A DNA stretch of 57,923 nt from Polyangia bacterium (lineage in GTDB: Bacteria > Myxococcota_A > Polyangia > Fen-1088): contig DATBHU010000095.1 in the NCBI GenBank assembly GCA_036557265.1, positions 1-57,923 of the forward strand, read 5' to 3'. Position numbers and translations under genes: made by a program. This document shows positions 862-54,510 of the stretch, piece after piece. Numbering within the stretch: position 1 is the first letter of the stretch; the number at the start of each line of letters is the position of its first letter. A model generated the notes under the pieces. The model did not search any database and was not told where the DNA came from. It saw only the letters and a program-made list of their open reading frames with translations.

Positions 862-1380
862 ATGGCGGCAGCAGCAGAAGCAGTGAAGACGAGCCCGCTC
901 GCGCGGGTGAAGGAAGAGTTCGGCGGCAAGGACAAGCTGGTCGACAAGATTGTCGGCGTGCTCGATTCGGACGAGAGCAAGGACGAGCTGCGCAAGCGCC
1001 TCCTCGGCGTCGCGAACTCGAAGCTGATCCGGCTGTTCTCGGTCGCGACCAAGACGAAGCAGGCCGGCGGCCACGACAAGCTGGTGGTGGCCACAGCCGA
1101 GAAGCTGAATCGCGCCAAGGACAAGGACTACGTCGCCAAGCTGGGCGAGTACTCGGACGGCCGGCTGCTCGACACGCTGCAGGCGGCGGAGCGCCGCAAC
1201 GGCGGCGGTGCCGCGGCGGCGAAGGCCGACGGCAGCAAGCCGCCGGTGGCGAAGGCGGCCCGGCCGGCGCGGCCTGCGGCGGCGAAGCCTGCCGCCAAGG
1301 CCGAGAAGCCGGCCGCCAAAGTGGATAGGAAGCCCGCGGCGAAGGGCCGAAAGCCGGCCGCGAAGAAGAAGAAGCGCTAA
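862..1380 (+). CDS. hypothetical protein with C-terminal Lys/Ala/Pro-rich histone H1-like tail
   Basis: 172 aa. GAAGGAGAAG Shine-Dalgarno upstream. The C-terminal ~55 aa are AAKP/KPAAK repeats ending KKKKR. It lies 14 nt upstream of the first BMC-P gene. Confidence 0.6.
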   Translation: MAAAAEAVKTSPLARVKEEFGGKDKLVDKIVGVLDSDESKDELRKRLLGVANSKLIRLFSVATKTKQAGGHDKLVVATAEKLNRAKDKDYVAKLGEYSDGRLLDTLQAAERRNGGGAAAAKADGSKPPVAKAARPARPAAAKPAAKAEKPAAKVDRKPAAKGRKPAAKKKKR

Positions 1381-1393
1381 CCGCGGGTCGGGC

Positions 1394-1693
1394 ATGTTCT
1401 TGGGCCGGGTCGTCGGGCGGCTCTGGGCGTCGCGCCAGGCGGCCGGCCTGGCCGGGCGCAAGCTGCTGCTCGTCCGGCCCGAGACGGCGACGGGCGGCGA
1501 GTCGGCGCGGCTGGTGGTCGCCGTGGACGGCCTGGCGGCTGGCCCCGGCGACCGCGTCATCGTCGCGCACGGAACCCGCGTTCGCGACCTGACCGTGGGC
1601 GTCGACGTCGCCGACAAGGACATCGTCATCGGCATCGTCGACGGTCACGACCTCGACGCCGGCAGCGCGGGCAACGTGGGTCGCCAGCGATGA
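1394..1693 (+). CDS. EutN/CcmL-family microcompartment vertex protein (BMC-P) paralog 1
   Basis: Starts MFLGRVVGRLWAS, then KLLLVRP and DGLAAGPGDRVIV. The ATG at 1394 is internal to track ORF 1208..1693. Its stop overlaps the next start (ATGA at 1690-1693). Confidence 0.85.
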   Translation: MFLGRVVGRLWASRQAAGLAGRKLLLVRPETATGGESARLVVAVDGLAAGPGDRVIVAHGTRVRDLTVGVDVADKDIVIGIVDGHDLDAGSAGNVGRQR

Positions 1694-2034
1694 TCCTCGG
1701 GCGCGTGATCGGGGAGGTCTGGGCGACGCGCCGCGATCCGCGGCTGGCGCGGGCGAAGCTGCTGGTGGTGAGGCCGCACGCGATCTACGAGCCGGCGTTC
1801 GCGACCCGCCACTTGGTGGCGACCGACGACGTCGACGCGGGCGTGGGCGACGACGTGGTGATCTGCCTGGGCGCGCCGGCGCGCGCGTCGCTGGGCAGCA
1901 ACGACATGCCGGTCGACGCGGCCGTGCTGGGCGTCGTCGATCGCGTCGAGCTGTCCGCCGAAGCCCAGGCGGCGCCCGGCGCCGCGCCCGGGATCAAGCG
2001 CGCGCTCGGCGTGCCGGGCGGGACGTCGCGATGA
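1690..2034 (+). CDS. EutN/CcmL-family BMC-P paralog 2
   Basis: MILGRVIGEVWATR..KLLVVRP..DDVDAGVGDDVVI..PVDAAVLGVVDRVEL, a close match to the CcmL/EutN pattern. ATGA overlaps on both sides. Confidence 0.9.
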   Translation: MILGRVIGEVWATRRDPRLARAKLLVVRPHAIYEPAFATRHLVATDDVDAGVGDDVVICLGAPARASLGSNDMPVDAAVLGVVDRVELSAEAQAAPGAAPGIKRALGVPGGTSR

Positions 2035-2303
2035 TCCGCGGGACGGTGATCGGGCAGGTGTGGGCGACGCGCAAGGCGCGCGGGCTGGAAGGCCAGACCT
2101 TGCTACTGGTGGCGGCGCGCGACGCGGACGGGCGCGCGACCGGCCGGCTGGTGGTCGCGAGCGACACGCTGGACGCGCGCGAGGGCGAGGACGTCACGGT
2201 CGCGTTCGGCTCGGGCGCGCGCAACGTGCTTCGCCCCGGCCCCGACAACCGCGATCTGCTGTGCGATGCGGCGATCGCCACCATCGTGGAAGGAGCGGGC
2301 TAG
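2031..2303 (+). CDS. EutN/CcmL-family BMC-P paralog 3
   Basis: MIRGTVIGQVWATRK..TLLLV..SDTLDAREGEDVTVAFGSGAR, 90 aa. Confidence 0.85.
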   Translation: MIRGTVIGQVWATRKARGLEGQTLLLVAARDADGRATGRLVVASDTLDAREGEDVTVAFGSGARNVLRPGPDNRDLLCDAAIATIVEGAG

Positions 2304-2304
2304 C

Positions 2305-2646
2305 ATGTTTCTCGGACGCGTCGCGGGTACGGTCTGGTCGACGGTGAAGTGGCCGGAGGCGAAGGGCGTGAAGCTGTTGCTGGTCCGCCCCTACCGGCTC
2401 GGCGATCTGCCGCCCGGCGTGGTCCCCGCCGCGCCACCCGGCGGCGGCGCGCCGTCGGAGCCCACGGACGATCTGGTGGTCTGCGCCGACACGCTGGACG
2501 CCGGCCCGGGCGACGACGTGATCGTCGCGTTCGGGCACGCGGCGCGCGTCGCGGTCAGCGATAAGCTGCCGCCCGGCAGCAAGCCGATGGTGCCGATCGA
2601 CGCGGCGGTCGTGGCGGTGGTCGACCGCGTGGAGATCGCGCGGTGA
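2305..2646 (+). CDS. EutN/CcmL-family BMC-P paralog 4 (with Pro/Gly-rich internal insertion)
   Basis: MFLGRVAGTVWSTVK..KLLLVRP..ADTLDAGPGDDVIVAFGHAAR..PIDAAVVAVVDRVEI. The ATG at 2305 is internal to track ORF 2266..2646. Confidence 0.9.
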   Translation: MFLGRVAGTVWSTVKWPEAKGVKLLLVRPYRLGDLPPGVVPAAPPGGGAPSEPTDDLVVCADTLDAGPGDDVIVAFGHAARVAVSDKLPPGSKPMVPIDAAVVAVVDRVEIAR

Positions 2647-3050
2647 GGGACGCCGATCTGCGCCGCATCGTCGCGGAGATCACCCGCGAGATCACGGCAC
2701 GCGAAGGCACGGCGCGGGAAGGGACCGCGCGGGAAGGGACGGCGCGCGCGAAGGCGACGGCCGCCGACGCACGGCGCGGCGGGCGCGCGGTCGTCACCAC
2801 CACCGGCAAGAACCAGCGCGGCATCGTGGCGCGGATCGCGCAAGCGATCGCCGACGCGGGCGGCGACATCGTCGACATCTCCCAGACGCTGGTGTCCGAC
2901 TACTTCACGATGATCATCATCGTCGACACCAGCGCGCTGTCGGTGCCGTTCGCCGAGTTCAAGGCGCGGCTCGAGCGCACGGTGGCGGCGGCGGGCGCCG
3001 AGTGTCTGGTCATGCACGAAGAGGTCGTGAACGCCCTGCAGCGCGTGTAG
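2643..3050 (+). CDS. ACT-domain protein of the UPF0237 type with a ~47-aa N-terminal extension (amphipathic helix plus (TAREG)x3 linker)
   Basis: The core AVVTTTGKNQRGIVARIAQAIADAGGDIVDISQTLVSDYFTMIIIVD...VMHEEVVNALQRV matches the ~90-aa UPF0237 ACT family. The GTG start overlaps the BMC-P4 stop (GTGA). There is no other in-frame ATG, GTG or TTG before the ACT core. Confidence 0.8.
   Translation: MRDADLRRIVAEITREITAREGTAREGTAREGTARAKATAADARRGGRAVVTTTGKNQRGIVARIAQAIADAGGDIVDISQTLVSDYFTMIIIVDTSALSVPFAEFKARLERTVAAAGAECLVMHEEVVNALQRV
2694..2747 (+). repeat. 15-bp coding tandem repeat, 3.6 units, encoding (TAREG)n
   Basis: acggcacgcgaaggc / acggcgcgggaaggg / accgcgcgggaaggg / acggcgcgc, read directly from the sequence. 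Confidence 0.9.
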
Positions 3051-3357: not shown

Positions 3358-4458
3358 ATGAAATACAGGCTCACGGAAAAGATCGGAAGCGGCGGGATGG
3401 CCGAGGTGTTTCGGGCCGTGGGCATCGGCCCCGAGCGGTTCGAGCGGCCGTTCGTCGTCAAGCGGATCCACCCGCGGCTGTCCGGGGCGCCCGAGTTCGT
3501 GCGCATGTTCGTCGACGAGGCGACGATCTCGGCGCGGCTGATCCACCCGAACATCGTCCAGGTGTTCGAGTTCGCGCTTCACGACGGCGCCTACTACCTT
3601 GTGATGGAGCCGGTCGACGGCATCGACATGGGGTGGTTGCTGCGCCGGCGCATCGAGCGGCCGAGCGAGCAGCTGTCGCCCGCGTTCGTCGCGGAGGTGG
3701 GGCGCCAGGTCTGCCGCGGCCTCGAGTTCGCCCACACGCTGGCGGACACCGACGGCAAGCCGCTGGACATCGTCCACCGCGACGTGACGCCGCCGAACAT
3801 CATGGTGGCCTGGAACGGCACCGTGAAGATCCTGGATTTCGGGCTGGCGCGCGCGGCGGAGGCGCTGCGCCTGCATCAGAGCGACGCCGGGATGATCCGG
3901 GGAAAGATGTCCTATCTGGCCCCCGAGCTGCTGCAGGGGGCGCAGGCGGACGCGCGCTCGGACCTGTTCTCGCTCGGCGTCGTCATGCACGAGCTGCTGT
4001 CGGGCCAGCGGCTGTTCGTCGGCGGCAACGACTTCGAGACGCTGCAGCAGGTGCAGTCGATGGCGATCCCGCGGCCGTCCAGCCGCAACCCGGGCGTCAA
4101 GCCGGCGCTGGACGCGGTCGTGATGCGCGCGCTCGAGCGCGAGCCCGCGCGGCGCTACAAGTCGGCGGCCGAGATGGGGGACGAGCTGGAGGCGCTGGTG
4201 CTGCGCAAGAACTACTCGCCGCGCGCCCTGGCCCGCAAGGCGCTGGAGCTCGGGGAGCAGGACACGCCGGCGCAGAAGGCGCGGCCGACGCCGCTGGCCG
4301 GGGCGGCGCCCGAGGAGATCGGCCGCGAGGACTCGACGGCGGTCGTCGACGAATCGCGCAGCGCCGAGGTGATGGCGGCCGCCCCGACCGGGACGGGCGA
4401 GGCGCGCGCCCAGCGCGGCCTGCGGCGCTGGCTCGCGTTCGGTAAAGCGAAAAACTGA
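3358..4458 (+). CDS. Hanks-type Ser/Thr protein kinase: catalytic domain, low-complexity linker and short C-terminal amphipathic helix
   Basis: GSGGMAEV glycine loop, VVKRI lysine, HRDVTPPN, DFGLAR and SYLAPE motifs are all present, so it is predicted active. No TM or sensor domain. Confidence 0.9.
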   Translation: MKYRLTEKIGSGGMAEVFRAVGIGPERFERPFVVKRIHPRLSGAPEFVRMFVDEATISARLIHPNIVQVFEFALHDGAYYLVMEPVDGIDMGWLLRRRIERPSEQLSPAFVAEVGRQVCRGLEFAHTLADTDGKPLDIVHRDVTPPNIMVAWNGTVKILDFGLARAAEALRLHQSDAGMIRGKMSYLAPELLQGAQADARSDLFSLGVVMHELLSGQRLFVGGNDFETLQQVQSMAIPRPSSRNPGVKPALDAVVMRALEREPARRYKSAAEMGDELEALVLRKNYSPRALARKALELGEQDTPAQKARPTPLAGAAPEEIGREDSTAVVDESRSAEVMAAAPTGTGEARAQRGLRRWLAFGKAKN

Positions 4459-4667
4459 ACCGACGCTGTCCGTCAGGGCGCGACTCGGGGCAGGCCCCGA
4501 CGTCTCTCCTGGTGCGGCGCGGGAGGGTGTGTCTGCTCGCGAGGTCGGTGTGTAACCCCGCGCCGCTTATTTCTCACCGCGCCTTCAGCGGCGCACCGAG
4601 CCGCCGAGTCGAAAGGCGCGCGGCTGAAGCCGGCCGACAGGAGCGGCGCGGGCGGCGTTCGTTCGAC

Positions 4668-4682
4668 TATATAGTGCGCGGA
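4668..4682 (+). promoter_or_regulatory. -10-like TATATAGT element 6-7 nt upstream of the UPF0210 ATG (possible leaderless transcript)
   Basis: gacTATATAGTgcgcggATG. There is no Shine-Dalgarno sequence between the element and the ATG at 4682. Confidence 0.3.
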
Positions 4683-6076
4683 TGCCCGCCGGCCCCCTGC
4701 GCTTCGACGCCACCGAGGTGCGCGAGGTGCTGCGCATGATCGAGAGTGAGAGCCTGGACGTGCGGGCGGTGACCATGGGCGTGTCGCTGCGCGACACGGC
4801 CAGCGACGATCTGCAGCGGACCTGCGGGCGCATCTACGAGAAGCTGATGCGCGCGGCCGAGCGGCTGGTGCCGACCACCAAGGCCGTGCACGACGACTTC
4901 GCCGTGCCGATCACGTCGACCCGGCTGTCGGTGACGCCGCTGGCGCTGGTGACCGAGTCGGCGCGCGCGCCGCGCGTGGTGCCGGCCGCGCTGGCGCTGG
5001 ACCGCGCCGCGGGCGAGCTGGGGGTCGACTACATCGGCGGCTTCTCGGCGCTGGTCGAGAAGGGGATCACGCCCGGCGACCGCGCGCTGATCGATTCGAT
5101 CCCCGAGGCGCTGTCGCAGACGACGCGCGTCTGCTCGTCGATCAACGTGGCCAGCACGCGCGCCGGCATCAACACCGACGCGGTGCTGGAGATGGGCCGC
5201 GTGATCAAGGGCGTGGCCGAGGCGACGGCGGCCGGCGGCGGCATCGGCTGCGCGCGCCTGGTGACGTTCGCGAACATCCCCGACGACAACCCGTTCGTGG
5301 CGGGCGCGATGCACGGCGTGGGCGAGGGCGAGTGCGTGATCAACGTCGGCTGCTCCGGGCCGGGGGTGGTGCTGTCGGCGCTCAAGCGGCTGCGCGCGGC
5401 GGGTGAGGCCTACGACGTCGCGACCATCGCGGAGACGATCAAGCGGATGGCGTTCAAGGTGACGCGCGCGGGTGAGCTGATCGGACGCGAGGTGGCGCGC
5501 CGCCTCGGCCCGCCCGTGCGCTTCGGCGTCGTCGACCTGTCGCTGGCGCCGACGCCGGCGGTGGGCGATTCGGTGGCGGAGATCCTGGAGGCGATGGGGA
5601 TCGAGAAGGCGGGCGCGCCGGGATCGGTCGCGGCGCTGGCGCTGCTGACCGACGCGGTCAAGAAGGGCGGCGTGATGGCGTCGTCGGCGGTGGGCGGGCT
5701 GTCGGGGGCGTTCATCCCGGTCAGCGAGGACGCGGGCATGGTGGCGGCGGCGCGCGCCGGCGCGCTGTCGATCGAGCGCCTGGAGAGCATGAGCGCGGTC
5801 TGCTCGGTCGGGCTGGACATGGTGGCGGTCCCGGGAGACACGACGGCCGAGACGCTGGCCGCCATCATCGTCGACGAGATCGCGATCGGCGTGTTCAACA
5901 ACAAGGCGACGGGCGTGCGCATCATCCCGGTGCCGGGCAAGCAAGCGGGCGAATCCGTCAACTACGGCGGGCTGCTGGGCGAGGCCTACGTGCAGCCTGT
6001 CAGCCGCTTCCGCGGCGACGGCTTCGTGCGGCTGGGCGGGCGCATTCCGGCGCCGCTGCAGGCGCTGCGCAACTGA
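4682..6076 (+). CDS. UPF0210 (DUF711) family protein, the usual partner of UPF0237 ACT proteins
   Basis: 464 aa. The N-terminus EVREVLRMIESESLDVRAVTMGVSLRD and C-terminus GGRIPAPLQALRN are typical of UPF0210. Confidence 0.8.
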   Translation: MPAGPLRFDATEVREVLRMIESESLDVRAVTMGVSLRDTASDDLQRTCGRIYEKLMRAAERLVPTTKAVHDDFAVPITSTRLSVTPLALVTESARAPRVVPAALALDRAAGELGVDYIGGFSALVEKGITPGDRALIDSIPEALSQTTRVCSSINVASTRAGINTDAVLEMGRVIKGVAEATAAGGGIGCARLVTFANIPDDNPFVAGAMHGVGEGECVINVGCSGPGVVLSALKRLRAAGEAYDVATIAETIKRMAFKVTRAGELIGREVARRLGPPVRFGVVDLSLAPTPAVGDSVAEILEAMGIEKAGAPGSVAALALLTDAVKKGGVMASSAVGGLSGAFIPVSEDAGMVAAARAGALSIERLESMSAVCSVGLDMVAVPGDTTAETLAAIIVDEIAIGVFNNKATGVRIIPVPGKQAGESVNYGGLLGEAYVQPVSRFRGDGFVRLGGRIPAPLQALRN

Positions 6077-6080
6077 GTTG

Positions 6081-7877
6081 ATGCCGGCCCGCGCTCTCCT
6101 GCTGCTCGCCGTCGTCGCGGCGACGCCTGCGCCGACGACGCCGGCGCCGCCGCCGCCGGCGACATCCGCGCCGGCGCGCGCGGCCGACGCCGGCGCCGAC
6201 AAGGCGCTGGCGGTCCGCCTCGAGCCGTTTCGCTTCTTCGCGGGCGCGCCGCCCGCCGGCTGGAGCGACCCCGCCTTCGACGATCGCAGCTGGTCCGGCC
6301 CCGCGCCCGGGCCGTTCGTGCCCCGCCAGCCGCCGCTGCCCCAGAACGTGCAGCAGCCCGCCGGCGCGACGAACTTCGACCTGGTCCCCGGCCAGCCGCT
6401 GCTGCTGCGGGCGCGCTTCGCCGTGCCCGACGCGCGGCGCGTGCGCGTGCTCGAGCTGCGCGTCGCCTACAACGACGCGTTCGTCGCCTACGTCAACGGG
6501 CGCGAGGTGGCGCGGCGCGGGATGGCGCCGGGCGGCGCCGCCGCGGCCGTGCCGCACGGCCCCGAGGTGGAGCGCGTCTACGTCGCCGTGCCTGACGTGC
6601 TGCCCGCGCTTTCGCCCGACGGCAACCTGCTCGCGATCGCGATCCATTCGTATCCCGAGCGCAGCACGGTGATCCCGACGGCGCCCGCGGCCATGGTCGG
6701 GCTGGCGGCCGCCAGCGGCGTGCGCATCGTGCGCGGCCCGTACCTGGCGGCGCCGGCGGAGTCCGGGAACAGGGCGCGCGTGAACATCGCCTGGGAGACC
6801 GATCTCCCGTCGCGCGGCCGGGTCGTCGTCGAGCCGGCGCCGGGCGGCGCGGCCACGCCGCCGCCGATGCAGATCCGGACGGGCCCGGCCGCGACGCGCC
6901 AGCTCGTGGCGGTCGACACCCTCGCGCGCGGCGCACGCTACGACTATCGCGTCGAGGTCGAGGCGGGGCCCGGCGACGGCGCGGCGAGCGCGCCGGCGCG
7001 CTTCGAGACGCTGCCGGCGCCGCCCGCGCCGCTGCGCTTCGCGGTCTACGGCGACATGCGCTACTCGGGGCACGAGGCCCACCGCACCATCGTCGACGCG
7101 CTGGTGCGCGAGGCGCCGCCGCTGGTGTTCAACACCGGCGACATGACCGACGAGGGAAGCCAGGAGGCGAACTGGCAGCGCTACTTCGACATCACGGCGC
7201 CGCTCGGCGCGATCGCGCCCGTCATCCCGGTGCTCGGCAACCACGACGCCGCGCGCGCCGGCGCGGGCGCGGCGAAGACGTGGGCGCTGTTCGCCATGCC
7301 GACGCCGGCGCCGCCGTTCTGGACTTCGCTCGATCTGGGCGGCGTCCACTTCGTGGTCCTGGACACCAACGACGCCGCGAACGCGGCGCAGCGCGCGTGG
7401 CTGGCCGACGATCTGGCGCGCGCCCGCCGCCACCACGCGCGCGGCGTGTTCGCCTTCTGTCACGAGCCGCCCTGGTCGCACGGCCTGCACGGCAACTCGC
7501 ATCGCATGATCCGCGACTACGCGCCGCTGCTCGCGGCCGGTCACGTCGACGTCTTCTTCTGCGGTCACGACCACATCTACGAGCGCGGCGTCGGTCCGAC
7601 CAAGCGCGGCAAGCTGGTCTACGTCGTCACCGGCGGCGGCGGCGCGCCGCTCTACAACCCGCGCTGCGAGGTCAAAAGCGTGGGACCCTCCCAGGGGCCC
7701 ACGAACAAAGACGTGCCGGGGCCGCTGCCGCCGTGCCCGCCGACGGTGGCGGCGCTGGCCAAGAGCTACCACTACATCACGGTCAGCGTCGACGACGACG
7801 CCATCACCCTGTGTCCCAAACGGCCCGACGGCTCGGCCGTGGAGCCGTGCGTCCGCCTGCCGCCCCATCGACGCTGA
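6081..7877 (+). CDS. secreted calcineurin-like metallophosphoesterase (purple-acid-phosphatase-like)
   Basis: Signal-like N-terminus. Motifs: FAVYGDMR, NTGDMTDEG, VLGNHD, FCHEPPW, CGHDHIYER. Confidence 0.8.
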   Translation: MPARALLLLAVVAATPAPTTPAPPPPATSAPARAADAGADKALAVRLEPFRFFAGAPPAGWSDPAFDDRSWSGPAPGPFVPRQPPLPQNVQQPAGATNFDLVPGQPLLLRARFAVPDARRVRVLELRVAYNDAFVAYVNGREVARRGMAPGGAAAAVPHGPEVERVYVAVPDVLPALSPDGNLLAIAIHSYPERSTVIPTAPAAMVGLAAASGVRIVRGPYLAAPAESGNRARVNIAWETDLPSRGRVVVEPAPGGAATPPPMQIRTGPAATRQLVAVDTLARGARYDYRVEVEAGPGDGAASAPARFETLPAPPAPLRFAVYGDMRYSGHEAHRTIVDALVREAPPLVFNTGDMTDEGSQEANWQRYFDITAPLGAIAPVIPVLGNHDAARAGAGAAKTWALFAMPTPAPPFWTSLDLGGVHFVVLDTNDAANAAQRAWLADDLARARRHHARGVFAFCHEPPWSHGLHGNSHRMIRDYAPLLAAGHVDVFFCGHDHIYERGVGPTKRGKLVYVVTGGGGAPLYNPRCEVKSVGPSQGPTNKDVPGPLPPCPPTVAALAKSYHYITVSVDDDAITLCPKRPDGSAVEPCVRLPPHRR

Positions 7878-17964: not shown

Positions 17965-18519
17965 TTAGTAAGCGTAAAGGGTAGTCACCCAAGATGCTCC
18001 GCCACCGGTGTCTCTCGGGACGTTACAGAGGACCCCGTAGTTAGCGGTAACGTATTGGACGTTGTTCGAACCGAGCTCGGTGCTGTTCCACTGGATATTT
18101 TGTGCACCTACGAAGGCCGTCGTCGGATCGACGCTGCCCCCCGCGAGGGAGTAAGTGTATTTTAGAATCGAGTAGGAAACGGTGCCGCCCTGGTATCCCT
18201 GGTAGACCTGGCACCAGAAATAGGCGCTGTCGGTTAGGTCCTTGTACTCGAGGACAACATTGGTGCGACTCACTGAGCTCGCCGACTGCGTACCGAATGC
18301 CAATGGACACATGAAGATTGCATCTTTGGTCGTCGACGGATTCTGGGCGCCATTGACCAGGTGGTAGATTGGGTTGCGGTGGTCCACATCGCCTGGATCA
18401 TCATTCTGCGGCTCGCACGCGCTGCCCGCGCCCGAGGTGTAAGTCGCATAGCTCGTATGACCCGCACAGACGAGGAGCCAGGCGACGAGAATCGAACACG
18501 CGGTTCCGGATCTTTTCAT
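17965..18519 (-). CDS. secreted hypothetical protein (184 aa, beta-rich, 4 Cys in the mature part)
   Basis: Strong RBS (GGAGGAAACC before ATG 18519). Signal peptide MKRSGTACSILVAWLLVCAGH. No recognisable family. Confidence 0.6.
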   Translation of the reverse strand: MKRSGTACSILVAWLLVCAGHTSYATYTSGAGSACEPQNDDPGDVDHRNPIYHLVNGAQNPSTTKDAIFMCPLAFGTQSASSVSRTNVVLEYKDLTDSAYFWCQVYQGYQGGTVSYSILKYTYSLAGGSVDPTTAFVGAQNIQWNSTELGSNNVQYVTANYGVLCNVPRDTGGGASWVTTLYAY

Positions 18520-18678
18520 GGTTTCCTCCGTGCGCCAGTCAGACCGGCGGGTTGAAATGAATGAAAGCCTCAAAGGCTAAGGAGCAGCAGTGAACTGTGC
18601 CGGCCGGAGCCGTGTACCGTCGCCAGTGCCGGATGCGGTAGTCCACCTCGTCCGGATCCGCGGAGGCGAGCATGACTC

Positions 18679-19446
18679 CTACTGCGACTGATTCGGTGTC
18701 GAGGATTTCCGATCCGGTTCCCGGTATAGGATGACGATGGTCTGGACTTGGCCCGACGGGGACCGCATCGGGCCCGATCGAAGTTTGGGACCCTTCCAAA
18801 GCAGAAAATCTTCGGAGCGAATGATTGCGCTGCCTGCGGCGTCCGCTGCTGCTGCGTCCTTGCTAGTTACGGTTACCGCGCAGCCATTTGCGAAGCAGCT
18901 AAAATCGTTGAAGTCAGCTCCAACCAATGCGGGCAATCGCTTCAGAGCCTCGACATGATTCAATGCATTCGAGGTCAGCGTGGAACTCGCTGGACCGGAT
19001 TTCTCCAGCGCGCTCAGCTCATGCTTCATCTGGAGTCTAACTACCTCTTCGGGTGTCAGACTTGGGTCAGTGAGATACGGTTGGTCAGAAGGCGAATCAA
19101 GGGCTGCCGGCTCATTCTGAACTTGCTCGTCTGCAGAAGCGCTGGGCCGGATAGGCAAGGTCAAGTGGAGATGGTCCTGTTGGACCGGCGGTGAATCATC
19201 GGGACGGCTCTCACTCGACGCAGGCGAGGCATGCACTCTCGAGCTTTCGCGCACGAGGAAATACCATACAGATCCCGCTGTCCCGACGGTGATCCCGAGG
19301 AGCAGCGTCAGCCCGACAACAATGCCGTTAGTGCGTAGACCACCCTGTCGACGCCGGTGGGTCTCCGGCGGACGCGAAGCGCTCGACACAGAATACATCG
19401 TCTGCTCGCCGGATCTGGTCGCGTTTATCAACAGGGTGGGAGGCAT
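18679..19446 (-). CDS. single-pass membrane hypothetical protein (alternative start at 19398)
   Basis: TM helix GIVVGLTLLLGITVGTAGSVWYFLV, then a Ser/Pro/Asp-rich linker and a ~110-aa C-terminal domain. The longer track start at 19638 would overlap argC. Confidence 0.45.
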   Translation of the reverse strand: MPPTLLINATRSGEQTMYSVSSASRPPETHRRRQGGLRTNGIVVGLTLLLGITVGTAGSVWYFLVRESSRVHASPASSESRPDDSPPVQQDHLHLTLPIRPSASADEQVQNEPAALDSPSDQPYLTDPSLTPEEVVRLQMKHELSALEKSGPASSTLTSNALNHVEALKRLPALVGADFNDFSCFANGCAVTVTSKDAAAADAAGSAIIRSEDFLLWKGPKLRSGPMRSPSGQVQTIVILYREPDRKSSTPNQSQ

Positions 19447-19568
19447 AGGACTCTCGTTGTTCGCGCCGGAGCGGCGCCCTTGTCGTTTCGCTACGTGATC
19501 CAGCGAGGCGGCACAGTAGGTGGATGCTGCTCGAACGTCCATACACAGGGCACTGGATTTCTCGGCCG

Positions 19569-19578
19569 CCTGACAGCT
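19569..19578. repeat. right copy of the 10-bp direct repeat CCTGACAGCT
   Basis: Identical to 17481..17490. Confidence 0.6.
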
Positions 19579-19596
19579 CCGAGGTGTGGGTAGAAT
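19570..19596 (+). promoter_or_regulatory. candidate argC promoter (CTGACA-N15-TAGAAT) 8 nt upstream of the ATG, a possible leaderless arrangement
   Basis: The -10-like TAGAAT is at 19591-19596 and the ATG at 19604, with no SD between them. The -35-like hexamer lies inside the direct repeat, and the spacing is short. Confidence 0.3.
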
Positions 19597-19603
19597 AGCG
19601 ATA

Positions 19604-20649
<1,046 letters not shown>

Positions 20650-51453: not shown

Positions 51454-52809
51454 TCACAGCGTCTGCAACACGAGCGGCCGGCGTGACGGAGATCGCGCGC
51501 CGACGGTAAAGGCGCGCTCGATCAGCGGGCCGGCGGCGTGCGCGCGGGCGGCGTCGTCGAATTCGACGGTGGCCAGCGCGTCGCCGCGCCCGACCGGCGC
51601 GCCGGCCTTCGCGTGCAGCAGGATGGCGGCGCCCGGCGCGATGCGGTCCTCCTTGCGCAGCCGCCCCGCGCCGAGCAGCGTCGCCGCGCGTCCCAGCAGG
51701 CCCGCGTCGACGCGCGCCACCACCCCGCGGCGCGCGGCGCGGACGACGCGGGCGTGGCGCGCGCGCGGCAGCCGGCGCGGATCGTCGATGGCGCGCGGGT
51801 CGCCGCCCTGCAGCCGGACGCCGAGGCGGAACCGCTCCAGCCCGGCGCCGCTCGCGATCGCGGCCTCGATGCGGCGCGCGCCGTCGCGGCGGTCGCGCGC
51901 GACGCGGCCGAGCACCAGCATCTCCGCGCCGAGGCGAACGGTCAGCGCGCGCACGTCCGGCGGCCCGCCGCCCCGCAGGACGTCGATCGTCTCGCGCACC
52001 TCGGCGGCGTTGCCGATCGCCTCGCCGAGCGGCTGGTCCATGTCGGTCAGCACCGCGCGCACGGGCAGGCCGAGCCGCCGGCCCAGCGCGATCAGCGCGC
52101 GCGCCAGCGCCCGCGCCTGCGCCGCCTCCGGCAGGAACGCGCCGCTGCCGACCTTGACGTCCATCACCAGCGCCCGCGCGCCCTCCGCCACCTTCTTCGA
52201 CAGGATCGACGACGCGATCAGCGGGATCGACTCGACCGTGGCGGTGGCGTCGCGCAGCGCGTACAGCGCGCGGTCGGCCGGCACCAGGCGCGCGGTCTGG
52301 CCGGCCAGCACGAAGCCGGCGCGCGCCAGCACGCGCCCGATCTCGGCGGTGGTCAGCGCGGTCCGGTATCCGGGGATCGCCTCCAGCTTGTCGAGCGTGC
52401 CGCCGGTGTGCCCGAGCGCGCGCCCCGCGATCATCGGGACCGTCAGCCCGCAGGCGGCGGCCAGCGGCGCCAGCGCGAGCGAGATCTTGTCGCCGACGCC
52501 GCCCGTCGAGTGCTTGTCGACGACCGGCGTGCCGAGCCGGTCCCAGCGCAGCCGCTCGCCCGAATCGATCATGGCGGTGGTCCAGGTGGTCAGCTCGCGC
52601 GTGGTCAGGCCGCGCCAGACGATCGCCATCAGCAGCGCCGACAGCTGGTAGTCGGGGATCTCGCCGCGGGCCGCCCCGCCGATGAGGGCCCGGATGTCGT
52701 CGTCGCCGAGCTCATGCCCGTCGCGCTTGGCGGCGATCAGCGACGGGACCGCGATCGGCGCGCGCCCCGGGCGCGTCGCGCGCGTCGATTGACGACGCGC
52801 CCGCGTCAT
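51454..52809 (-). CDS. deoA: thymidine (pyrimidine-nucleoside) phosphorylase
   Basis: KRDG..L, DKHSTGGVGDK, GRALGHTGGTLDKLE and SIPLIASSILSKK motifs. Confidence 0.9.
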   Translation of the reverse strand: MTRARRQSTRATRPGRAPIAVPSLIAAKRDGHELGDDDIRALIGGAARGEIPDYQLSALLMAIVWRGLTTRELTTWTTAMIDSGERLRWDRLGTPVVDKHSTGGVGDKISLALAPLAAACGLTVPMIAGRALGHTGGTLDKLEAIPGYRTALTTAEIGRVLARAGFVLAGQTARLVPADRALYALRDATATVESIPLIASSILSKKVAEGARALVMDVKVGSGAFLPEAAQARALARALIALGRRLGLPVRAVLTDMDQPLGEAIGNAAEVRETIDVLRGGGPPDVRALTVRLGAEMLVLGRVARDRRDGARRIEAAIASGAGLERFRLGVRLQGGDPRAIDDPRRLPRARHARVVRAARRGVVARVDAGLLGRAATLLGAGRLRKEDRIAPGAAILLHAKAGAPVGRGDALATVEFDDAARAHAAGPLIERAFTVGARSPSRRPLVLQTL

Positions 52810-53999
52810 GCCGGGCCCTGCAGCGCGCTCAGGAAGCTCTCGCCGTGGGCCAGCGGCGCGACGCCGAGGCCCTCGGCGATGGTCTGGCCGAGGTCGCAGA
52901 ACGACGCGCGCGCGCCGAGGCGGGCCGGGCGGACTCCCGGCCCGAACGCCAGCAGGGGCACCTGCTCGCGCGTGTGGTCGGTCCCGGGGGTGGTCGGATC
53001 GTTGCCGTGATCGGCGGTGATGAACGCGACGTCGTCGGCGCGCAGCGCCGCCTCGAACGACGGCAGCCAGCGATCCAGCTCGACCAGCGCGCGCGCGAAG
53101 CCGGCGCTGTCGTTGCGGTGGCCGTAGAGCATGTCGAAGTCGACCAGGTTGACGAACAGCAGGCCCCGGTCCAGCGTCGCCAGCGCCTCCAGCGTCAGGT
53201 GCAGGCCGTCGGCGTTCCCCTCGCTGTGCACCGAGAAGCCGACGCCGCGCCCCGCGAAGATGTCGGAGATCTTGCCGATGCCGACGACCGACTGGCCGGC
53301 GTCGCGCACGTGGTCGAGCAGCGTCGGCGCGGGCGGCACCAGCGCGAAGTCGCGCCGGTTGTAGGTGCGCTTGAACGCGCCCGGCTGGCCGACGAACGGC
53401 CGCGCGATCACCCGCCCGATCTGGTGGCGGTCGGCGATCTCCCGCGCCGCCTCGCAGATCCGGTAGAGCTCACGCAGCGGGACCACCTCCTCGTGGGCGG
53501 CGATCTGGATGACCGAATCGGCGGACGTGTACAGGATCAGATCGCCGGTCGCCATGTGCTGCGGGCCGAGCTCGTCGATGATCGCCGTGCCGGAGGCCGT
53601 CTTGTTGCCGAGCAGCCCGCGCCCGGCCGCCGTCGCCAGCGGCGCGGTGATCTCGCGCGGGAAGCCGTTCGGGAACGTCGCCAGCGCGCGCGTCGTCACC
53701 AGGCCCGCCATCTCCCAGTGGCCGGTGATGGTGTCCTTGCCGGCCGACGCCTCGCGCATCACGCCCCAGGCGGCGCGCGGCGCGGCGGCCTCGCGCACGC
53801 CGGCGATCGCGGTCAGGTTGCCGAGGCCGAGCGCCTGCAGGTTGGGCAGCGAGAGCCCGCCCACGGCGCGCGCCAGGTTGCCGAGCGTGTCCGCCCCGGC
53901 GTCGCCGTAGTCCGCCGCGTCGGGCGCGCCGCCGCAGCCGACGCCGTCGGCGACGAGGATGATCGCGCGCTTGAATCCACTCACCGGTCCAGGATACAT
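52806..53999 (-). CDS. deoB: phosphopentomutase
   Basis: KRAIILVADGVGCG, GHWEMAG, LYTSADSV, DFDMLYGHRND and ADHGNDPT motifs. Start at M73 of the track ORF (alternative 54020). Its stop overlaps the deoA start. Confidence 0.85.
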   Translation of the reverse strand: MYPGPVSGFKRAIILVADGVGCGGAPDAADYGDAGADTLGNLARAVGGLSLPNLQALGLGNLTAIAGVREAAAPRAAWGVMREASAGKDTITGHWEMAGLVTTRALATFPNGFPREITAPLATAAGRGLLGNKTASGTAIIDELGPQHMATGDLILYTSADSVIQIAAHEEVVPLRELYRICEAAREIADRHQIGRVIARPFVGQPGAFKRTYNRRDFALVPPAPTLLDHVRDAGQSVVGIGKISDIFAGRGVGFSVHSEGNADGLHLTLEALATLDRGLLFVNLVDFDMLYGHRNDSAGFARALVELDRWLPSFEAALRADDVAFITADHGNDPTTPGTDHTREQVPLLAFGPGVRPARLGARASFCDLGQTIAEGLGVAPLAHGESFLSALQGPA

Positions 54000-54018
54000 C
54001 GACCGGGTGCGTGCGCTC

Positions 54019-54510
54019 ATGGCATTGATGGCCGTCGTCGCCGTCGCGGGCGCGGGCGCCGCATCGGCGGCGCGATCGGGTCCGGCGCTGCCGATCGCGA
54101 GCCTGAAGATCGAGACGACGATGGGCGGCGAGCCGGTCGTCCTGGAGCTGGGCGAAGACGGCCGGATCAGCGGGCGGGGGGCGTTCCAGCAGCACGCGCA
54201 GCTCGTCGGTCGCATCGACGGCCCGCGCGTGCTGACCGGCGAAGGTCAGCCGCTCGCCACGCTGGGGCCGGGCGGCCGGATCGACGCGGCCGCCTTCGAG
54301 CGGCCACTGCGGGTGCGCGGTTGCACGCTGATCGACGATGAAGGCGCCGAATACACCGTCAGGCGGAACGGCGACTTCTGGTTGAAGCCGGCCGGTCAAA
54401 AACGGTTCCCGCTCCCGGCGCACGTCGACGGCGACGTCAGGCGCGCGTGCCCGACGGCGCTGCTTCTCTATCGGATGCTGCCGTTCTTTCTCCGTTCAAA
54501 CGCGCGGTGA
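54019..54510 (+). CDS. small secreted hypothetical protein (163 aa)
   Basis: Signal peptide MALMAVVAVAGAGAASAA. Protein-like composition. Divergent from deoB. Confidence 0.4.
   Translation: MALMAVVAVAGAGAASAARSGPALPIASLKIETTMGGEPVVLELGEDGRISGRGAFQQHAQLVGRIDGPRVLTGEGQPLATLGPGGRIDAAAFERPLRVRGCTLIDDEGAEYTVRRNGDFWLKPAGQKRFPLPAHVDGDVRRACPTALLLYRMLPFFLRSNAR

Follow-up and report, generated by a model that had tools for sequence, protein, structure and literature searches.

A cassette of four microcompartment pentamer genes with an ACT-DUF711 pair in uncultured soil Myxococcota

Shells of bacterial microcompartments (BMCs) are built from vertex pentamers (BMC-P, PF03319) and from facet hexamers and trimers (BMC-H and BMC-T, PF00936), and a satellite locus is defined as holding one kind of shell Pfam in contiguous genes, with a main locus carrying BMC-H and BMC-P elsewhere in the genome (Axen 2014; Sutter et al. 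2021). We analysed a contig of 57,923 nucleotides from a Polyangia bacterium (DATBHU010000095.1, hereafter the window), in which four BMC-P genes, P1 to P4, are followed by genes for an ACT-domain protein of family UPF0237 and a DUF711 protein of family UPF0210. The BMC catalog (Sutter et al. 2021) served as the reference classification. The window shares with satellite loci the single, contiguous shell Pfam, since it holds four PF03319 genes and no PF00936 gene in 58 kb.

Several described types come close to this arrangement. The Haliangium ochraceum (HO) type keeps two BMC-P genes at a satellite locus (Sutter et al. 2021), as was also stated in the preliminary description of the window, made from the sequence alone. 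The HO type I satellite and the window have in common that they are from Myxococcota and that a pentamer multiplet is encoded partly at a locus without BMC-H, but the HO satellite pairs its two BMC-P genes with a PF00596 aldolase, and the window has four BMC-P genes, the ACT-DUF711 pair and no aldolase. The MIC3 type has two same-clade pentamers in its main locus and a satellite triplet, five pentamer genes in all, and the FRAG types scatter their shell genes across up to six places (Sutter et al. 2021). FRAG4 resembles the window in its dispersed shell genes and several BMC-P; apart from shell proteins, the one BMC-typical product it encodes is an ACT protein whose N-terminal domain is BMC-specific. 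Unlike the window, the FRAG types are known from Ignavibacteriae and relatives, Gemmatimonadetes, Planctomycetes, Marinimicrobia and candidate phyla, and no DUF711 is described for them.

No type in the text or the hidden Markov model (HMM) table of the catalog combines four BMC-P genes with ACT and DUF711, which supports the earlier view that a four-BMC-P locus of this kind has not been described. The neighbours had also been called non-canonical. This does not hold in full: the catalog lists ACT as a BMC-associated protein (HMM 'acimic3', for ACI/MIC3, and FRAG4), and in Planctomycete MIC3 main loci ACT-DUF711 comes straight after the shell genes. DUF711 (PF05167) is absent from the main text, type descriptions and HMM name table of the 2021 catalog.

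We favour, with a probability of roughly 0.57, the reading that this conserved locus, from an uncultured soil Polyangia lineage, is one fragment of a dispersed metabolosome of MIC3/FRAG/HO-like kind, comprising vertex genes and an ACT-DUF711 module, with the facet genes and aldehyde dehydrogenase encoded elsewhere. The listing of ACT in ACI/MIC3 and FRAG4, and the scattered shell genes of the FRAG types, argue for it. P1 to P4 would then encode vertex pentamers, with P1 to P3 representing a three-paralog array that occurs alone in other Myxococcota and P4 an additional member. An N-terminal extension of ACT, the small subunit, would bring this protein and its partner DUF711 to the compartment. 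In the lineage of the window, recruitment would depend on an encapsulation-peptide-like amphipathic helix on a flexible linker, and in a sister lineage and in Planctomycete MIC3 the extension would also hold a shell-binding domain like EutQ H1/H2. The ACT-DUF711 complex could be cargo, possibly the missing signature enzyme, or an adaptor between shell and cargo. Both the attachment of ACT-DUF711 to a shell and the presence of hexamer, trimer and aldehyde dehydrogenase genes elsewhere in the genome are what we infer from the comparisons below.

Identity of the four BMC-P genes

P1 to P4 matched the PF03319 EutN_CcmL profile over all of its 83 positions with scores of 65-82 bits (cut-off 25), and are therefore genuine paralogs of this family, as first proposed (Table 1). 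An open reading frame (ORF) check and the JGI gene calls on an identical metagenome contig gave the coordinates and strand that had been reported, with the same P1 to P4 boundaries, and the precomputed JGI Pfam assignments agree. The lengths of 114, 90 and 113 amino acids for P2 to P4 were correct, and that of P1 is to be amended from 100 to 99. The translations of all four genes carry the N-terminal motif M-[FI]-[LR]-G-[RT]-V-x-G-x-[VL]-W-[AS]-[ST] and the loop D-x-[LV]-[DA]-A-x-x-G-[DE] noticed at the outset, and P2 and P4 end in P[IV]DAAV..VVDRVE. The junctions are likewise as described, with ATGA overlaps between P1 and P2 (1690-1693) and between P2 and P3 (2031-2034), a 1-nt gap between P3 and P4 (TAG-C-ATG, 2301-2307), and a GTGA overlap of the P4 stop codon with the ACT start codon (2643-2646). 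P1 is the most divergent of the four and lacks the PxDAAV motif, P2 has a C-terminal tail of ~27 residues, and P4 contains a Pro/Gly-rich loop insertion.

Table 1. Features of the window and of related loci (positions are those of the window unless a locus is named)
Feature	Position	Strand	Remarks
up172, conserved upstream gene	862-1380	+	172 aa; ends 13 nt before P1
P1, BMC-P paralog 1	1394-1693	+	99 aa; PF03319 E 9.9e-18, profile positions 1-83 of 83
P2, BMC-P paralog 2	1690-2034	+	114 aa; PF03319 E 3.6e-23
P3, BMC-P paralog 3	2031-2303	+	90 aa; PF03319 E 1.2e-19
P4, BMC-P paralog 4	2305-2646	+	113 aa; PF03319 E 1.1e-18
ACT-domain protein	2643-3050	+	UPF0237 core residues 48-135; 47-aa N-terminal extension
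Predicted helix in ACT extension	2649-2702	+	residues 3-20
Ser/Thr protein kinase	3358-4458	+	366 aa; PF00069 E 7.6e-37; between ACT and DUF711
Terminator-like hairpin	4546-4565		3' of kinase
DUF711/UPF0210 protein	4682-6076	+	PF05167 E 1.2e-174; NCBIfam NF003700 full-length, 662.8 bits (cut-off 440)
Calcineurin-like phosphoesterase	6078-7877	+	PF00149 E 4e-16; syntenic in L004-L007, L101, L112
Two ORFs of low GC content	17965-19638	-	202 aa (signal-peptide-like start) and 319 aa
Nucleoside phosphorylase and metalloenzyme	51457-54215	-	PF00591 and PF01676
Stand-alone three-gene BMC-P arrays	L009, L010, L011, L013, L016		orthologous to P1-P3

The closest PDB chain for all four proteins was the H. 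ochraceum shell pentamer BMC-P (5V74; E 1.6e-6, 1.3e-12, 1.4e-10 and 4.4e-8 for P1 to P4), and the second-best match of P3 was MSM0273 (5L37), a BMC-P of the gray clade, which together with the orange and a third clade makes up the BMC-P triplet of the catalog (Sutter et al. 2021). Against the NCBIfam equivalogs CcmL, EutN and CsoS4A/B, the best scores of P1 to P4 were 31-50 bits, far below the cut-offs of 89-125; they belong neither to the carboxysome nor to the Eut vertex proteins. HO main-locus pentamers from the Polyangia loci L050 and L152 belong to the canonical VV(S/A)T/GSSAR kind, which is not that of P1 to P4. All four instead have Trp at position 11 (V-W-A/S-T), as do both pentamers of Planctomycete MIC3 loci, whereas Val occupies this position in Escherichia coli EutN, HO-5814, the BMC-P of Polyangia HO main loci and the ACI paralogs of Acidobacteria. 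The four full-length PF03319 matches, all nearest to the H. ochraceum shell pentamer, argue for a part in a dispersed metabolosome, and by analogy with this structure P1 to P4 probably form pentamers at shell vertices.

Conservation of the cassette

A search with P2 returned 374 database clusters at E<=1e-5, and the best 120 of the 374 were 75-95% identical, with several named as Polyangia metagenome-assembled genomes (MAGs). In a synteny scan that sampled one genome per GTDB species, seven Polyangia MAGs shared the order up172, P1, P2, P3, P4, ACT, DUF711, Metallophos, DUF4380, PPTase, and contig look-ups together with a metagenome scan added dozens of soil contigs. After deduplication, 42 loci (466 kb) from soil metagenomes and MAGs held four BMC-P and ACT genes without BMC-H or BMC-T, and a further 21 truncated contigs were consistent with this arrangement. 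The search for the arrangement in other Myxococcota genomes, which the preliminary description had called for, thus found the cassette in two deep lineages with different flanking genes. In the lineage of the window, amino-acid identity is 75-96% over a diversified clade represented by dozens of contigs. In the second (GC content 0.60-0.66, labelled Myxococcales), the order P1-P2-P3-P4-ACT-DUF711 is kept at 41-55% identity and is followed by MeaB in wholly different surroundings, with no BMC-H or BMC-T within 10 kb on either side. The array is a cassette conserved in uncultured soil Myxococcota and no peculiarity of one contig.

Profiles built for each position and compared between the two lineages scored 70, 105, 79 and 119 bits on the diagonal and 19-54 bits off it (the second-lineage gene at position 4 reached 118.8 bits against the position-4 profile), and the four positions are therefore one-to-one orthologous. 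P1 to P3 are in turn one-to-one orthologous to the stand-alone three-gene arrays, which occur in Anaeromyxobacteraceae-like and other Myxococcota MAGs, and P4 is the extra member. The three such arrays that are fully flanked (L009, L010, L016) had no BMC-H, ACT or DUF711 within 10 kb; L016 lies beside genes for a pseudouridine synthase and an FG-GAP lipoprotein. The conservation of the cassette in 42 loci of two deep lineages, with unrelated flanks and one-to-one orthologous paralogs, supports the reading as a fragment of a dispersed metabolosome. Two narrower ideas about P4 were given up. A neighbour-joining tree placed it beside the MIC3 pair and suggested that it belongs to the MIC3 (waterblue) clade, but group profiles do not single it out, and the idea that P4 occurs only where ACT-DUF711 follows was refuted by a locus (L017) with four BMC-P genes and no ACT.

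We compared the genes of the window with those of six orthologous loci by the ratio of nonsynonymous to synonymous substitutions (dN/dS), which was 0.14-0.31 for P1, 0.23-0.42 for P2, 0.05-0.22 for P3 and 0.06-0.15 for P4; DUF711 gave 0.15-0.19, and P4 is thus as constrained as DUF711. All four paralogs are under purifying selection, and are therefore functional and separately constrained, a further point for the dispersed metabolosome. These values also contradict the view that the array is a non-functional relic of a lost microcompartment locus. The lack of facet genes nearby would fit such decay, as would close relatives without BMC-P, which show that the array can be lost; yet the frames are intact and translationally coupled, sequence identity is high within the clade, and the gene order has persisted in the second lineage. 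We regard a decaying remnant as very improbable.

The ACT-DUF711 pair and its link to the pentamer genes

The ACT and DUF711 proteins of the window share their cores and their adjacency with the UPF0237/UPF0210 pair of Firmicutes, Actinobacteria and others (PDB 1ZPV; SP0239-like), and both pass the NCBIfam equivalog cut-offs. Adjacent ACT and DUF711 genes were found in 20 of 26 generic metagenome ACT loci, in Planctomycete MIC3 loci and in both Myxococcota lineages; in genomes, DUF711 usually accompanies the UPF0237 ACT protein. The DUF711 protein of the window is 86-89% identical to its orthologues, and DUF711 is placed in the barrel superfamily that also holds ribonucleotide reductases and glycyl-radical enzymes. 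Our literature search found no paper tying DUF711 or UPF0210 to microcompartments. The generic pair differs from that of the window in that it has no BMC-P neighbours and that its ACT protein has no extension.

This last difference was clear in the 26 generic loci, from gut and digester metagenomes, where the gene begins at the core (MKAVITVTG), whereas the BMC-linked versions are extended. On the ACT protein of the window, NCBIfam NF001220 matched residues 48-135 with model positions 3-90 of 90 (76.8 bits, cut-off 74), which leaves 47 residues as an N-terminal extension; PDB 1ZPV also matches the protein. The extension consists of an amphipathic helix and a disordered (TAREG)n linker. An AlphaFold2 model built with 23 homologues gave a predicted local distance difference test score (pLDDT) of ~69 for the helix, <50 for residues 22-41 and ~97 for the ACT core. 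The helix, DLRRIVAEITREIT, has a hydrophobic moment of 0.75, a value reached by 11% of shuffles. A terminal amphipathic helix of ~15-20 residues, a linker and a cargo domain make up the layout of encapsulation peptides, and the extension matches it; its architecture is thus encapsulation-peptide-like, and it may serve in shell targeting. Extended ACT proteins next to BMC-P genes, generic ones without extension, and the modelled series of helix, linker and core favour recruitment to a dispersed metabolosome.

A conserved helix ([DE]-L-A-R-[LI]-I-E-x-[IV]-V-x-x-E) in 23 proteins of the sister lineage aligns with that of the window; the extension in the sister lineage is longer and runs from a domain of ~45 residues through a linker to this helix. 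The same ~45-residue domain starts the Planctomycete ACT protein and a separate protein of 111 residues, and in MIC3 and the sister lineage this domain can be aligned with E. coli EutQ over EutQ residues 2-45 (31-36% identity). In a study from 2025, EutQ was shown to bind the EutM/EutL shell by H1/H2 (residues 9-41) and the encapsulation peptides of cargo by H3/H4 (PMC12487888). The extension of MIC3 and the sister lineage thus resembles the N-terminal linker of EutQ from the Salmonella Eut compartment in its H1/H2 part, and continues with a linker and an amphipathic helix resembling H3/H4. It differs in being fused to an ACT domain, as opposed to the cupin acetate kinase in EutQ, and the ACT protein of the window keeps a single helix and linker only; alignment found no EutQ-H1/H2-like domain in it, although one is present in the ACT proteins of MIC3 and of L012-like loci. 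The EutQ-like extension of MIC3 and the sister lineage is another argument for attachment to a dispersed compartment.

Two side observations concern the extension. A CxxC motif, e.g. LCASCAEEARRRG, is conserved just before the core in many extensions (L004-L007, L098-L122), and the subclade of the window is without it. In L002, L054 and L055 (MAG DATMZL01 and ENA contigs), the extension and the core lie in different reading frames, and the annotated product has only 86 residues; siblings from the same cluster are intact, and either a real frameshift or a shared assembly error would account for this.

The parallel to MIC3 came from a genome scan, which gave ~20 Planctomycete loci with the order BMC-H, aldehyde dehydrogenase, BMC-H, BMC-Tdp, P, P, BMC-Ts, small protein, ACT, DUF711. 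In their aldehyde dehydrogenase, a long linker of Pro and Ala leads to a C-terminal domain with four Cys. These loci match the MIC3 type of the catalog, its five pentamer genes with a satellite triplet included. As in these loci, a BMC-P gene of the window lies immediately 5' of an extension-bearing ACT gene, and DUF711 comes next, after the kinase insertion in the window and directly in L004-L008. Both systems also have many pentamer paralogs, some of them encoded away from BMC-H, and the Trp at position 11. Unlike MIC3, the cassette has four contiguous BMC-P genes and belongs to another phylum, its ACT protein in the window is without the EutQ-H1/H2-like domain, and the main-locus set of two BMC-H, BMC-Ts, BMC-Tdp and four-Cys aldehyde dehydrogenase, present in the Planctomycete control L033, is absent from the window and from every cassette locus. 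That the shell genes of the Planctomycete MIC3 loci are followed by ACT and DUF711 favours the reading of the cassette as part of a dispersed metabolosome.

How firmly the two halves of the cassette belong together can be judged from loci in which they part. In two soil contigs (L110 and L117), up172 is followed by ACT-DUF711 without BMC-P, and the ACT extensions are without the helix: the protein of L117 keeps MVKRDVDD and then jumps to the CxxC segment, and that of L110 starts past the helix. A neighbour-joining tree of the ACT core, from a short alignment and without bootstrap, placed L110 and L117 at different positions within the BMC-P-bearing clade, which suggests that the array was lost twice and the helix with it each time. 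That these loci lack exactly the helix, and that the P4 stop codon overlaps the ACT start, count in favour of a shared role in a dispersed compartment. A strict coupling of helix and BMC-P genes was also considered and is weakened by L107, L122 and L124, where a helix-bearing ACT has no adjoining BMC-P.

These exceptions bear on a simpler explanation, by which P1 to P4 are vertices of a compartment encoded elsewhere, the array was inserted by chance, and ACT-DUF711, with up172, is an unrelated housekeeping operon whose ACT extension serves, for example, in oligomerisation or CxxC redox sensing. It would account for up172-ACT-DUF711 without BMC-P in L110, L117 and L122, for up172 and four BMC-P genes without ACT in L017, for helix-bearing ACT proteins away from BMC-P, for the wide occurrence of ACT-DUF711 outside a BMC context, and for the CxxC motif of many extensions, which has no known BMC role. 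It leaves unexplained why BMC-P genes lie beside ACT-DUF711 in three settings with unrelated flanks (Planctomycete MIC3 and the two Myxococcota lineages), why a EutQ-like shell-binding domain is found exactly in BMC-linked versions of ACT, why the P4 and ACT genes overlap, and why the helix is gone in two relatives that have no BMC-P. We judge a mere neighbourhood unlikely.

Facet genes and the remaining neighbours

The preliminary description had recognised no PF00936-like sequence in the window, and searches by tblastn, HMM and Pfam all came back empty. The best E-value of five canonical BMC-H proteins in a tblastn search of the window was 0.9 (the HO-5815 query matched PDB 5DJB exactly), and an HMM built from the five found no match in the window, whereas it picked out BMC-H or BMC-T in every Planctomycete and Acidobacteria control locus. 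Pfam scans of ~45 genes of the window gave no PF00936, no PF00171 aldehyde dehydrogenase and no PF00596 class II aldolase; the genes identified were housekeeping ones, e.g. argC, argB, uvrC, ftsK, lolA, cobU, class II ribonucleotide reductase, dnaB, rpsF and rpsR. In the Planctomycete and Acidobacteria BMC-P loci obtained from the same search, BMC-H was nearly always within 1-4 kb. HO-type main loci do exist in Polyangia MAGs and were found only in MAGs other than those bearing the cassette; among the matches listed, the BMC-H-bearing Polyangia MAGs (DATFWX01, CAYMOR01) differ from the cassette MAGs (DATMZL01, DATFXS01).

One metagenome contig, L094 (JGI Ga0134123_10053587, nucleotides 1-620), showed an apparent BMC-H beside P4-ACT and, if real, would be the sole BMC-H adjoining the cassette. 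Its nucleotides 1-483 encode the C-terminal end of a BMC-H and the first part of a canonical BMC-P, with a GC content of ~0.6, and are unlike other fetched sequence. From nucleotide 484, within the PIDAAV codons, it is 100% identical to the Polyangia contigs L082 and L123 (P4 3' end, ACT and kinase). We rejected it as a probable assembly chimera, joined at this conserved motif.

Several results weigh against a dispersed metabolosome. BMC-H and BMC-T were absent from the window and from the 466 kb of related four-BMC-P loci (viewed over <=10 kb on each side). A protein search with HO-5815 followed by look-ups gave no BMC-H from a cassette-bearing MAG among the best 120 of 7,978 matches, and DATFWX01, the one Polyangia MAG in which a BMC-H locus turned up, is not a cassette MAG. 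The 2021 catalog finds no detectable encapsulation peptides in MIC3 (Sutter et al. 2021), and the EutQ-H1/H2-like shell-binding domain has been lost in the lineage of the window. The profile scores do not back the tree's placement of P4 near the MIC3 pair. A kinase gene, elsewhere also WD40 and RCC1 genes, parts DUF711 from ACT in the subclade of the window. In L017, unrelated convergent genes come after up172 and the four BMC-P genes, and this locus counts here along with the helix-bearing ACT proteins of L107, L122 and L124.

The missing facet genes could also mean that there is no shell, and that the four BMC-P no longer cap one and act alone with ACT-DUF711. They could, for instance, form homo- or hetero-pentamers that serve as scaffolds or regulators and bind the N-terminal helix of ACT. 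The absence of BMC-H and BMC-T from 42 complete and 21 truncated loci, against their usual closeness in Planctomycetes and Acidobacteria, points this way. So do the strong purifying selection on the four paralogs, the Trp in place of the Val of EutN, HO-5814, Polyangia HO main-locus BMC-P and ACI paralogs, and the loss of the EutQ-like domain, which in EutQ binds hexamer/trimer interfaces, with retention of the helix. By the method of the catalog, genomes with BMC-P only would have been set aside as 'incomplete (sat) (omitted)' (Sutter et al. 2021). Yet the MIC3 pair also has Trp at position 11 and stands among BMC-H/T genes, satellite and FRAG loci show that BMC-P is often distant from BMC-H, HO-type main loci exist in Polyangia MAGs, and the related loci were viewed over at most 10 kb on each side. 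We know of no role for PF03319 other than that of a shell vertex. A hexamer-free system has, in our estimate, a low probability, and its broadest form, an abundant soil Polyangia lineage wholly without BMC-H/T in which Trp-11 BMC-P work shell-free with helix-tagged ACT and DUF711, is quite improbable.

The other neighbours are tied to the cassette to differing degrees. The up172 gene lies directly 5' of P1 in all Polyangia loci, directly 5' of ACT in L110 and L117, and 5' of the four BMC-P in L017. Its product combines a helical N-terminal domain with a histone-H1-like tail rich in Lys, Ala and Pro, and gave no Pfam or PDB match, with a sole NCBIfam hit far below the cut-off; a single-sequence AlphaFold2 model (pLDDT 56) was all-helical with a disordered tail and too poor for a fold search. 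The up172 protein might tether or partition the assembly on DNA. The kinase is no conserved part of the system but a lineage-specific insertion: it is absent in L004-L008, L101 and L112, where ACT adjoins DUF711 directly, and in other subclades the slot holds a kinase alone or with WD40 and RCC1 genes (in L063-L067 a 544-residue kinase, a WD40 protein and an oppositely oriented RCC1-repeat protein). The calcineurin-like phosphoesterase is conserved 3' of DUF711 only within the Polyangia lineage, with MeaB in its place in the second, and its membership in the system is doubtful. In that second lineage (L012, L015, L156-L162), a MeaB/ArgK-type G3E GTPase gene (PF03308) is always immediately 3' of DUF711 and is followed by PilZ, CAP and lipoate-protein-ligase genes. 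MeaB is a chaperone of B12-dependent mutases, and its place beside DUF711 is possibly a clue to the cofactor of DUF711.

Searches of the window gave no Rfam match, no tRNA and no sigma-70-like promoter; terminator-like hairpins were present, on either strand, only just 3' of the kinase gene, in a number close to that expected from shuffled sequence. Further away, a thymidine/pyrimidine-nucleoside phosphorylase gene adjoins that of a metalloenzyme resembling phosphopentomutase (Table 1). The two would form a route from nucleosides to deoxyribose phosphate, and the catalog speculates that HO/SPU compartments degrade nucleic-acid sugars (Sutter et al. 2021); the pair is ~50 kb from the array, and its proximity is probably a coincidence. 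Two further ORFs have a GC content of 0.62 against ~0.72 and may be acquired DNA. Outside the window, L020 (Planctomycetota) has the order P, RpiB (PF02502), P, P, DeoC (PF01791) with no BMC-H inside 10 kb, and resembles an SPU/FRAG5 fragment and not a MIC3 satellite; L026, also from Planctomycetota, has the same three BMC-P at the same spacing.

The cassette is best filed as an undescribed variant of a known organelle system, built from members of PF03319, UPF0237 and UPF0210. Since only 12 pentamers cap a shell, BMC researchers regard the reason for multiple BMC-P paralogs as unexplained, and many metabolosomes (MIC, HO, FRAG) are listed without a known signature enzyme. Each of the four paralogs is separately constrained, which argues against redundancy, and the cassette offers a tractable case for why BMC-P paralogs multiply. 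ACT-DUF711 is a candidate partner that recurs beside pentamer genes in two phyla, and DUF711, through its superfamily, is a testable candidate enzyme or adaptor for MIC3-like compartments. The EutQ-like module on a different protein suggests that the linker mechanism of EutQ is in use beyond Eut compartments. If the genomes truly lack hexamers, the pentamer fold would for the first time be seen in a role without a shell, and there would possibly be an answer to why many bacteria retain several BMC-P paralogs.

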